From a virus (lineage: Duplodnaviria; Caudoviricetes), in IMG/VR virus record IMGVR_UViG_3300028888_001547, positions 1 to 64,000 of that record: a stretch of 64,000 nucleotides of DNA. The stretch is one strand, 5' to 3'. Every line of letters begins with the position of its first letter. Positions within the stretch are counted from its first letter, which is position 1. A model generated the notes under the pieces. It ran no database searches and was not told the DNA's origin. It worked only from the letters and a program-made list of their open reading frames with translations. The position numbers were made by a program, and so were the translations under genes. Below, piece by piece: positions 3,635 through 5,915 of this stretch.

Positions 3635-5915
3635 CAACCCGTCAGCGCCATGTAAACGGTCTCATTAGCCGGGCGCGCAAGAGTATATACTTGATCCGAG
3701 AATATGTTAGCCTGCTCAACAGGTGAGAAACCCAAAAGGTAGGATGAAATGCTATGATGTGTAACTATACTCTACACAGAAAAGTTCATAGTAAGTGGGG
3801 AGAGCGTCTGTATCAGACCCCAACACTAATATATACCAGCAACGTTCTTTATGCGTTTGCCAGACTCGTGAAGTGAGGGATATTAGTAAGGAAGACGCAC
3901 AGAGTAAAACGAAATGAGAGTAATCTCAAAGTAGCTCTAAACTGAACCGTATCGATAGATTTACTATAATGATACATAGTAGTAAAATCACGTTACACGA
4001 GCTGAACATCCGAAATATGCCACAACGTAGGATGATGTATCAATTCACAATTAGCTGTAGTCTAGTGTCACAGGTCTCCAAAACCTGCATTGAGGGACGA
4101 GTCTGAGCATATTAGCCAAGTAGATGGCTTGACAATCTACGCCGTACCGTAACTACGGTCCTTGAAGAAATCCTTCTAGTTTCGATTACTAGATGACCAC
4201 CTTTGAGGCTACGGTCCCACTGGGTCACCGGGGATGGGGTACTGAGGAAAATGTGATGAAGACAACCGATGAGCTTTTGGTCGTTTATTCGGTATATAAA
4301 AGAGAAAATGACCGCTAGGTAGATGGCGCTACCTATGGCGAAGTAGGGCATTGATGCTTGAATGCCACGCGAGTGAAGTCCGCGAGTAAGACTATTCTAA
4401 AGTTATGAAAAACTATGGTAAGCGATAGTTAAGTAATATAGATTGGAGATGTACCAGAGGAAATGCTGGAGTCGAAGGGTTACAACCTGACAGTAAAAAG
4501 CAGGCAGAGCCAAAAACTTTTTTATAGTGAGATAGGGTCGATTCGAAGCGTGTACATCCAGTACACAGAGAGATCGCTCGTTCATATTACAAAGATAATA
4601 ATACGATGTAACACTGTTATACTATAATCTATAGTCTCTACAGATTAGTAAGCTGGTATATTATAGAAGCAGTATAACTTGATTACTAAGATAAATCGTA
4701 TGAAAATAATTGGTATGAATTATAACATGTTTAACAAAAATTGGATGTCCCTCTATGAAATCTATTACGTTATGTTCAACGCCTTAGAAAAGTGTCCTTC
4801 TGTTGTATTGAAGAAACATAGCCATTTTAGACGTATGATAGAGAACCGAGTGCCAACCGTTCCTGAGAAGCAAGTAGCAGGATAGATAATAGTTAGGGGT
4901 TAGACTGCAAATCTAACTAATCGGCTTAGTCTATGAAGCAATATACGCAAACGATGCAAGGCAGCTTATCGCGAAGTGAAGTCACCTCCCTGTCTCGGAG
5001 GGGTAAAGTGAACAGTATGAAACCTCTGTAATGGAGTTAGTACTACTGCAAACCGATGAAGCGGAACATTAAGTGGGTGATAAATCTTATAGCGTATGGG
5101 GTGGAATTCCTCCAGTATTCGTGCACTATAAACAGAAGCCAGCAGCAAAGCTGAATGCACAGTAAAAAGCCGTAGACCCATGATGGAGTTTTGGAGCTCC
5201 TAGGTCATGTCCGATAAAGATCAGGTTAGATTTAGCCTGAAATAGATGCCATAAGGCTGAGCGTAATGCAAAATTAAACGGCGGGGTATTGATTGTTCTG
5301 ACCGCAGTTAATATCAGAACAGGGGTAGCTGTGCCTAACTTGGTATCGTAAGACCAGGTCACAACAGCAAGGCAGTAAGTTTTAGAAATATTTGGTAAAT
5401 ACTCGAAAACCAACTGCACTTTATTGAGTTCTATGAACAGTAGCCAATATTGAAATTTTGCCTTGAGCATTAGTCAATGGAATGCTGCCAACGAACAAAC
5501 TTCCGTCGGATTAGTACCGCATGGGAAATATGATTCGACAAAATATTACCAAACTCAATATTGTGTTTCGTTTTTGGTGCTTGATTGCACATCTTGGCAT
5601 TTAGCGCTTTTGGTCCTTTCACATTGATGGATATTCTGTGCCATACCGTTTGGCCCTCCGTTATCATGACTTTCACGACCTGTTTACAGGGGATGTATGA
5701 GGAATATATTGATAACTATGTGTGTAAAGTAAACGCGCTTCCCATATGCATAGCACAACCAGATTAAGAACAAAATAAGAAACACTATATCTTGTACAGC
5801 CAATAATGACAGTAGCCAGCCTGAAGAGAGAATTGTAGTAATTTTTTATGGCAACGTCCGAGCCGAGAGGACATATGTATCATTTATGTCGTTAGTCAAT
5901 CACTGGCGATATCAA
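3635..5915 (+). ncRNA. Candidate large structured non-coding RNA (~2.3 kb) or a cluster of ncRNAs
   Basis: No credible ORF. Dense nested inverted repeats, several with G-U pairs that work only on the + strand. Confidence 0.55.

Follow-up and report, generated by a model that had tools for sequence, protein, structure and literature searches.

Positions ~3590-5910 on the plus strand of a crAss-like phage genome (IMG/VR record IMGVR_UViG_3300028888_001547) likely encode a very large structured non-coding RNA of the Oafivirinae and Loutivirinae, as a single gene or as several genes packed closely together, and a function at the level of plus-strand RNA is very likely. The record is a complete, circularly assembled virus genome of 106.6 kb, and the window analyzed here is its first 64 kb. 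Within the window, open reading frames (ORFs) at 3110-3604 and 5929-6537 flank an ORF-free gap of 2,324 nt (3605-5928). Alignment of the gap with its counterparts in other phages reveals short near-invariant blocks that alternate with hairpins, the arms of which vary among phages yet remain complementary. Gene order and the nearest GenBank relatives suggest that the phage belongs to subfamily Oafivirinae of the Suoliviridae crAss-like phages. In the guts of humans and animals, the Suoliviridae (the "delta" crAss-like group) rank with the largest and most abundant groups of phages (PMC7886860).

Coding capacity and covariation of the gap

That the gap is a decayed or unconventionally decoded protein-coding sequence is scarcely credible. 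Under translation table 11, the longest plus-strand ORF in the gap is at most 68 amino acids, and the maximum on both strands is 114 amino acids, on the minus strand. No frame was opened when TAG was read as glutamine, TGA as tryptophan, or TAA as glutamine. Two database annotations do put hypothetical minus-strand ORFs of ~160-170 amino acids in the gap of relatives, but across 24 relatives and three codes, no ORF was kept in position, strand, or length. Moreover, the conserved blocks are short, indels are not multiples of three, compensatory changes are paired, and the surrounding block of plus-strand genes uses the standard code. The gap is the longest ORF-free stretch in the genome; nearby intergenic gaps do not exceed 286 nt, and none of those in the recoded late gene block (see below) is longer than 500 nt. 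A first-pass annotation, made from the sequence of the window alone, had described 2.3 kb as ORF-free in a tightly packed genome, and that description was borne out by table 11, by the three reassigned codes, and by the relatives.

Base pairing in the gap is supported by covariation. The whole region was tested with 35 non-redundant sequences in six anchored segments, aligned by sequence only and scored with the same measures as two smaller alignments, A2 (4063-4296, 23 sequences) and A4 (3689-3800, 35 sequences). As a control, the pairing partner was slid by 1-3 columns, and 500 shuffles were made for each of A2 and A4. Across the whole region, 190 pairs were paired in 87.2% of cells, compared with 35-45% when slid; double changes occurred in 126 pairs (69-86 when slid), and covariation was 0.387 (0.07-0.11 when slid). 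The ~39 helices are distributed along 2.2 kb, and 28 of the 39 combine at least two double-change pairs with at least 80% pairing. The signal was present in each of the six segments, the less conserved 3' third included, as illustrated by segment 1 (45 pairs, 88% paired versus 34-47% slid), segment 3 (31 pairs, 84% versus 27-46%), segment 4 (22 pairs, 90% versus 29-46%), and segment 6 (29 pairs, 86% versus 38-47%). In A2, RNAalifold gave 25 pairs, of which 21 changed on both sides, and a six-helix structure of 30 pairs was 92.3% paired (30-46% slid), with double changes in 24 pairs (7-9 slid) and a covariation of 0.596 (0.06-0.13 slid); none of the 500 shuffles reached the observed values. A4 was 90.8% paired (30-47% slid), with double changes in 13 of 17 pairs (3-9 slid) and a covariation of 0.497 (0.03-0.14 slid), and again none of the 500 shuffles reached the score. 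The first-pass annotation had proposed aligning the syntenic regions of relatives as a check, and the outcome is strong covariation over 2.2 kb.

The hairpins that had been named from the single sequence were found where they had been placed, and most of them are conserved with compensatory changes. Hairpin 3750-3757/3786-3793 has double changes in 7 of its 8 pairs, and both GTAGA/TCTAC (4120-4140) and the T-loop hairpin at 4175-4193 covary in A2. The terminal hairpin at 5888-5910 is likewise conserved with compensatory changes, having T-G in this phage where relatives have T-A pairs. The stem ACTAATAT/ATATTAGT (~3825-3887) was missed by the sequence-only alignment but is seen in its rows, where the arms take different but still complementary forms among relatives, for example AGATTATACAGC/GCTGTATAATCT for cr7 and TTGTTA/TAACAA for cr273. 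The hairpin GAGA-GTAA-TCTC falls in a lineage-specific insertion, and GGCATT/AATGCC and the hairpins at 5221-5240 and 5286-5314 fall in poorly aligned stretches. In the domain containing hairpins 4797-4813 and 4898-4918, all 7 pairs of the latter have double changes, and the most conserved core (5071-5211) is organized as nested helices (5072-5080/5119-5127 and 5094-5101/5109-5118). Among the conserved loops are a T-loop, UUCGAUU (4180-4188), as well as UCCAAA, GGAUAAUAC, CGUAA, and GAAAA.

The plus strand is favored for RNA pairing. Consensus folding energy was lower on the plus strand in six of six segments, and 72 pairs were predicted on the plus strand alone compared with 41 on the minus strand alone. 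Pairs predicted on both strands contained 194 G-U cells versus 134 A-C cells, and overall there were 868 G-U versus 420 A-C cells. Thus, the G-U pairs that had been read from the single sequence as a mark of plus-strand RNA are real. Moreover, single pairs pass through G-U, as in GU:12/AU:8/GC:3 and UG:13/CG:7/UA:3, and the pairs of the domain at 4063-4296 are rich in G-U.

Distribution and comparison with known RNAs

The gap is kept in the same syntenic place, at 1.9-2.3 kb, in all relatives examined. Those in GenBank that have the flanking genes all show 2.0-2.2 kb free of ORFs at this position. Gap and gene order are kept in five Oafivirinae genera and one Loutivirinae genus, the shared order being a sigma factor, a small ORF, an ORF of 460-500 amino acids, an ORF of ~150 amino acids, the gap, three ORFs of ~200 amino acids, and DNA polymerase. 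Conserved sequence blocks of the gap are common to at least 106 IMG/VR contigs and 8 GenBank phages. The 17-mer TATTCGTGCACTATAAA alone retrieved 70 IMG/VR stretches, and a two-block pattern from the 5' end of the gap retrieved at least 106, most of them on contigs of 90-106 kb; such blocks are candidate markers that could identify this phage group in metagenomes. Spacing between the 5' blocks and the 3' block was 1881-2234 nt at 77 loci (median, 2027). Nine matches in GTDB are phage genomes, not chromosomal copies; they are mostly phage-sized contigs of ~94-101 kb binned into metagenome-assembled genomes of unrelated taxa, two of them with Segatella copri. Judged by sequence, the family spans at least the Oafivirinae and the Loutivirinae.

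The neighboring protein genes are no more conserved than the RNA region. The flanking 202-amino-acid protein is 26-37% identical to its homologues, while islands in the gap reach 77-90% (blastn). In most comparisons, global nucleotide identity to the window was higher for the RNA region than for both flanking ORFs, for example 0.76 versus 0.63 and 0.48, or 0.65 versus 0.45 and 0.38. Otherwise gene-packed genomes devote ~2% of their length to an RNA that evolves more slowly than the adjacent proteins.

Homology was sought beyond these two subfamilies. A covariance model of the 5' domain, R1, has one match in this genome (E, 2e-20) and gave nothing significant in phi14:2 and crAss001 (Steigviridae), crAss002 and Rudgehvirus (Intestiviridae), or cr118_1 (Suoliviridae, Uncouvirinae); searches of the same five genomes with the conserved blocks and with nhmmer also gave nothing significant. 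Nevertheless, cr118_1 has an ORF-free gap of near-equal length (1.92 kb; MT774379.1 53706-55625) at the syntenic place, in the order sigma factor, ~480-amino-acid gene, ~136-amino-acid gene, gap, ~185- and ~169-amino-acid genes, and DNA polymerase, and the slot is therefore family-wide. None of 22 conserved blocks occurs in the cr118_1 gap, however, the R1 matches (E, 0.28 and 0.54) fall outside it, and a single marginal nhmmer match (E, 0.037) lies inside. The cr118_1 gap is possibly a very divergent homologue, or possibly a different and perhaps unrelated large RNA in the same slot. We note that the annotation of cr118_1 splits the DNA polymerase gene into two pieces, ~370 nt apart with a small ORF between them (MT774379.1 46785-49269), and that this looks like an intron or intein-type insertion. 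Insertions of that type have been reported for delta-group crAss-like phages.

The gap matches no known RNA family. Rfam cmscan at gathering thresholds found only the tRNA at 8014-8085 in the window, and a search of the gap at E values up to 10 found only chance-level matches to unrelated small families; the gaps of six relatives had no match. At the gathering threshold there was no score for GOLLD, ROOL, OLE, HEARO, raiA, or other large RNAs of Rfam 15. Likewise, no Rfam model for group I or II introns, RNase P, transfer-messenger RNA (tmRNA), rRNA, or 6S RNA matched the gap or those of the six relatives, in agreement with the first-pass annotation, which had seen no hallmark of rRNA, RNase P, tmRNA, or group II introns and had proposed the Rfam search. 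ARAGORN with default settings found no tmRNA or tRNA inside the RNA region. Full-text literature searching found no paper describing this RNA; regions of crAss-like genomes without recognizable proteins have been noted by Yutin et al. but not analyzed as RNA (PMC7886860). The region is longer than 500 nt, is non-coding, and has many covariation-supported helices across diverse genomes, and so falls in the descriptive class of large ornate non-coding RNAs.

Three RNAs of that kind invite comparison. Homo-multimeric RNA-only assemblies have been solved for GOLLD, ROOL, and OLE. OLE (ornate, large, extremophilic) is a bacterial RNA of the Bacillota, ~600 nt long, that forms a ribonucleoprotein with dedicated partner proteins encoded adjacent to it. 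The RNA described here resembles OLE in being a large multi-helix non-coding RNA with near-invariant unpaired blocks, but it has no model match and no recognizable partner gene beside it. The first-pass annotation had put all three RNAs under ~1 kb. For GOLLD and ROOL the claim agrees with the literature, as GOLLD is just over 800 nt and ROOL ~580-660 nt (PMC12286853). Like GOLLD, the RNA is a large, elaborately folded phage non-coding RNA near tRNA genes that is defined by covariation. Unlike GOLLD, it resides in Crassvirales and has no Rfam model match even at E values up to 10. At ~2.0-2.3 kb, it exceeds 16S rRNA and is ~2.5 times as long as GOLLD, the largest described ornate phage RNA. 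GOLLD forms a multimeric nanocage and has palindromic kissing loops; in this RNA, no convincing loop palindromes hinting at kissing-loop multimers were found, and by eye none covaried as a palindrome. With ROOL (Rumen-Originating, Ornate, Large; PMC12286853) it shares phage or prophage origin, a rumen or gut habitat, and nearby tRNA genes. ROOL, however, is pseudoknotted with a solved octameric cage, whereas here no pseudoknot or multimer contact could be demonstrated and there is no model match. Where measured, ROOL is very abundant without a known protein partner (PMC12286853).

The best precedent from experiment is another crAss-like phage. In phi14:2, a Cellulophaga phage of the same virus order, RNA-seq showed two adjacent long intergenic regions to be transcribed above most genes from the earliest time point on and to persist; Drobysheva et al. 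name them long non-coding RNAs of undetermined function (bioRxiv 10.1101/2020.03.07.982082). The phi14:2 genome has an ORF-free region of ~1.7 kb between g004 and g006 (2905-4601), which lies ~5 kb upstream of the polymerase gene (9645) on the same strand, much as the gap at 3605-5928 precedes the polymerase gene at 9834 here. Phi14:2 belongs to the family Steigviridae, however; it has no conserved blocks, its R1 match (E, 0.86) is at an unrelated place, and nhmmer found nothing below an E value of 0.8. The relation to the phi14:2 RNAs is best treated as positional analogy, with homology unproven.

Transcription, boundaries, and possible function

The locus is present in RNA libraries of several studies. 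Of 24 listed runs holding part of the stretch, 14 are recorded as RNA, from sheep and cattle gut. Contigs of four RNA runs from four studies cover the locus and include many variant contigs with the conserved blocks; over position 5099, three of these runs had 10-12 contigs each and the remaining run had 4. Summed contig depth was higher in the RNA than in its flanks, and one cattle run had no cover on several flank bins. We did not use this contrast because contig depth cannot rank genes and the runs had been selected with this stretch. The libraries are weak support for transcription.

Several results weigh against a structured RNA gene at this locus. The RNA-library contigs bridge into both flanking genes and give neither ends nor strand, and they may derive from carried-over DNA. 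Neither a promoter nor an intrinsic terminator could be assigned, and the upstream hairpin lacks a T-run in relatives: a scan for sigma-70-type promoters gave many weak matches in A+T-rich DNA, none of which was assigned; a Bacteroidota -7/-33 or ECF-type motif at fixed spacing was not convincing in the edge alignment; no promoter motif matching the ECF-type sigma factor of the phage was identified; and the conserved leader blocks showed no promoter-like recurrence before other genes of this genome. Neither a partner protein nor a target was identified, and the neighboring proteins are without family. Long-range helices that would join the domains into one fold show almost no covariation. Finally, folding energy of the single sequence in 150-nt windows was no better than that of dinucleotide shuffles (mean z, -0.32), and the coding flanks fold more negatively (mean z, -1.46). 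The first-pass annotation had listed precisely this outcome among those that would speak against its candidate, and its description of the region as densely base-paired holds by covariation, not by thermodynamic stability. We conclude that the comparative evidence carries the case and outweighs the folding-energy null; the single-sequence scores, which show no signal, were themselves counted neither in favor of structure nor against it. Within the flanks (1600-3600 and 5950-8000), plus-strand windows reach z scores down to -6, the strongest being 3475-3700, with the hairpin at the ORF end, and 6475-6700.

Candidates for long-range pairing found no support. Where the second block varies, the 10-bp complementarity of GAATATGTTA (3700-3709) with TAACATGTTT (4723-4732) is not restored by compensating changes, and 4744-4750/4959-4965 and 5489-5494/5889-5894 are mostly invariant and hence unsupported. 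An all-against-all covariation scan returned many weak 4-bp long-range "helices," with near-equal numbers on the two strands (58 versus 56), and was too noisy to be used.

How the RNA might act can be proposed in outline. It would be transcribed together with the plus-strand block of early and replication genes, would be released at the conserved hairpins on its two edges, and, by analogy with the long non-coding RNAs of phi14:2, might accumulate as a stable molecule. It could then act in trans as a folded scaffold or decoy, either RNA-only or with protein, and its invariant unpaired blocks and loops (the T-loop, UCCAAA, GGAUAAUAC, and GAAAA) could make tertiary contacts or bind host or phage factors during takeover. 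The trans-acting scaffold or decoy mechanism specifically is tentative, and we would doubt it slightly sooner than assert it. A stronger version, in which the whole 2.1 kb is one RNA that forms a single compact particle and serves as an RNA machine in host takeover, perhaps by reprogramming translation for a switch to TAG as glutamine, we regard as improbable. If it is such a particle, no larger structured RNA would be known from bacteria or their viruses apart from those of the ribosome. Structure is demonstrated at the level of hairpins only; if there is also one fold, RNA structural biology would gain a new object. The RNA also offers a handle on the takeover of Bacteroidota hosts by crAss-like phages and on the unexplained abundant non-coding RNAs of phi14:2.

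The locus might instead hold two to four separate structured RNAs in tandem, for example ~3690-4580, 4745-5240, and 5240-5910, that act independently and come from internal promoters or from cutting of a precursor. Covariation is confined to local helices, and long-range closing helices are unsupported; an A+T-rich, promoter-like center (~4585-4740) with conserved blocks divides the locus; phi14:2 has two neighboring long non-coding RNAs; and a three-arm tRNA-like module (4113-4201) may be the mark of a processing site. However, the parts are all found together, with constant spacing between them, in every genome examined, no conserved internal terminator was found, and the tRNA-like module is without an acceptor stem. 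Moreover, the absence of long-range covariation may merely reflect invariant partners and the sequence-only alignment. We consider an array unlikely but a serious possibility, and it is compatible with the rest of the picture. The first-pass annotation had named both an undescribed very large structured RNA and a processed array of RNAs, and that pair of readings is supported by the covariation, the plus-strand preference, the absence of an Rfam family, and the failure to find a paper describing the RNA.

The edges of the element raise a further explanation, that the region acts in cis within a polycistronic mRNA, as an intercistronic spacer or leader that controls processing, stability, termination, or translation of the flanking genes without any function in trans. 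Structure begins on the stop codon of the upstream gene, which is included in the conserved loop TGAGGATT of hairpin 3591-3622, and its last, conserved hairpin stops 18 nt short of the next start codon and adjoins a Shine-Dalgarno-like AAAAAGGA; RNA-library contigs cross both borders, and the region has no promoter or terminator of its own that could be found. Yet 2.2 kb with ~39 conserved helices and ~20 near-invariant blocks far exceeds the needs of any known leader, conservation peaks in the middle of the region (5071-5132), distant from both genes, and the RNA evolves more slowly than the genes it supposedly regulates. A cis-acting spacer is thus quite improbable. For a structured RNA gene, hairpin 3591-3622 is a possible terminator or processing site at the 5' edge; a T-run follows it only in this phage, and therefore it is no general intrinsic terminator. 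The terminal hairpin at 5888-5910 is likely the 3' end or a processing site, and the stretch beyond it (5911-5931) belongs to the downstream gene and not to the RNA.

A role at the level of DNA, as a replication origin or packaging region, is very improbable. A transcript could, for example, form a persistent R-loop that primes DNA synthesis, and R-loop or primer mechanisms are known from ColE1 RNA II and the origin transcripts of phage T4, the primer RNA being ~550 nt. The region lies a few kilobases upstream of the polymerase and other replication genes, folded primer RNAs occur in other replicons, and there is an A+T-rich stretch in mid-region. The extremes of cumulative GC skew are not here, however, but at ~89 kb and 19-20 kb, the points at which genes change orientation. 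Moreover, no iterons or direct repeats were seen in the alignments, though dedicated repeat finders were not run on the window, and the G-U preference and strand asymmetry point to pairing in RNA. Two kilobases of covarying helices also far exceed a primer RNA of that size. Thus, we favor a gene or gene cluster for a structured RNA, the parts of which are collected in Table 1.

Table 1. Parts of the structured RNA region, its borders, and the nearest tRNA gene (positions in the window)
Feature	Position	Strand	Remarks
Long hairpin of 14 pairs overlapping the upstream ORF stop (3602-3604)	3591-3622	+	Arms vary, complementary in 8 relatives (alignment A3)
Small covarying hairpin (3623-3635), then leader blocks AACCCGTCAGC (3636-3646) and GGTCTCATTAGCC (3658-3670)	3623-3688	+	Alignment A3
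5' domain with near-invariant blocks ACTTGATCCGAGAATATGTTAGC and CAAAAGGTAGGATGAAAT	3689-3800	+	4 helices, 17 pairs (A4)
Domain with long stem ACTAATAT/ATATTAGT (3825-3887) around a conserved block	3801-4062	+	Hairpins 3924-3937, 3949-3996
Best-resolved domain, with three-arm tRNA-like module	4063-4296	+	Six covarying helices (A2)
Arms of tRNA-like module	4120-4140 (D-like); 4141-4159 (anticodon-like); 4175-4193 (T-loop hairpin)	+	T-loop hairpin TCTAG-TTTCGATTA-CTAGA
Middle section	4297-4744	+	Hairpins 4316-4334, 4368-4384, 4413-4428, 4480-4496, 4550-4566
A+T-rich stretch within middle section	~4585-4740	+	Conserved blocks TAGTCTCTACAGAGTAGTAAGCTGG, AACATGTTTAACAAAAAT
Domain with invariant block CGAGTGCCAACCG (4847-4859)	4745-5070	+	Hairpins 4797-4813, 4898-4918
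Most conserved core: AAGTGGGTGA (5071-5080), TATTCGTGCACTATAAA (5116-5132), then block AGCCGTAG	5071-5211	+	
3' third, less sequence conservation	5212-5887	+	Covarying hairpins 5577-5590, 5596-5608, 5629-5659, 5660-5716, 5671-5702
Conserved terminal hairpin GTCGTTAGT/ACTGGCGAT	5888-5910	+	ATCGTT/AACGAT in most relatives; loop T(T/A)ATCAA
Shine-Dalgarno-like start region of ORF 5929-6537: ATCAAAAAGGA, 7 nt, ATG	5911-5931	+	
tRNA-Gln(UUG)	8014-8085	+	2.1 kb downstream of RNA region

Two tRNA-like cloverleaves (4020-4096 and 4113-4201), both with poor acceptor stems, were called in the RNA by ARAGORN at a relaxed threshold. Three of the covarying helices correspond to the D-like, anticodon-like, and T arms of the second. 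We rejected it as a tRNA, as its acceptor stem has 4 of 7 pairs and its anticodon is unconserved; the same threshold gives 91 calls genome-wide.

Neighboring genes and TAG recoding

The RNA region sits in a neighborhood rich in RNA genes. In addition to the tRNA gene downstream, three tRNAs and a tmRNA lie 4-8 kb upstream, across the circular junction (genome 101745-105820). The genes around the gap are all on the plus strand, and the gap is downstream of a sigma-factor gene, between genes for ~150 and ~200 amino acids, and ~4 kb upstream of the DNA polymerase gene. The sigma factor is of the ECF type (Sigma70 regions 2 and 4; 589-1155), is encoded three genes upstream of the RNA, and is kept in all relatives. 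Apart from the sigma factor and the polymerase, the neighboring proteins matched no PHROG or Pfam family, and for the 464-amino-acid neighbor the Atlas model was poor and gave no structural match.

The same genome reads TAG in two ways. Plus-strand genes from ~89 kb across the junction to ~20 kb use the standard code, and the late block at 20-89 kb, on the minus strand, reads TAG as a sense codon. With TAG as glutamine, 67.6 of the 69 kb of the late block are covered by stop-free frames of at least 150 amino acids, versus 32.8 kb under table 11, and one ORF of 5072 amino acids (25916-41134, minus strand) has 59 in-frame TAG codons. Across the whole genome, ARAGORN found no tRNA with anticodon CUA, only tRNA-Gln(UUG), tRNA-Gln(CUG), tRNAs for Glu and Met, and a permuted tmRNA; a tRNA(CUA) is present in two of three related genomes checked. 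One guess is that TAG is decoded through near-cognate reading by the phage tRNA-Gln(CUG). The RNA region was rejected as the carrier of an amber suppressor, as its anticodon-like loop is unconserved and relatives have ordinary tRNA(CUA) genes.

The RNA and the recoding occur together. A late gene homologous to 41140-43365 (minus strand) has 1-12 in-frame TAG codons in 27 of 27 RNA-bearing genomes with this gene, and in cr118_1, the Suoliviridae phage without the RNA blocks, it has none. The association is confounded by shared ancestry and does not require the RNA. Finally, we note that the early block contains further plus-strand stretches, 0.85-1.4 kb long, in which no ORF reaches 70 amino acids, at 15272-16121 of the window and at 95018-96212 and 97370-98761 of the genome.

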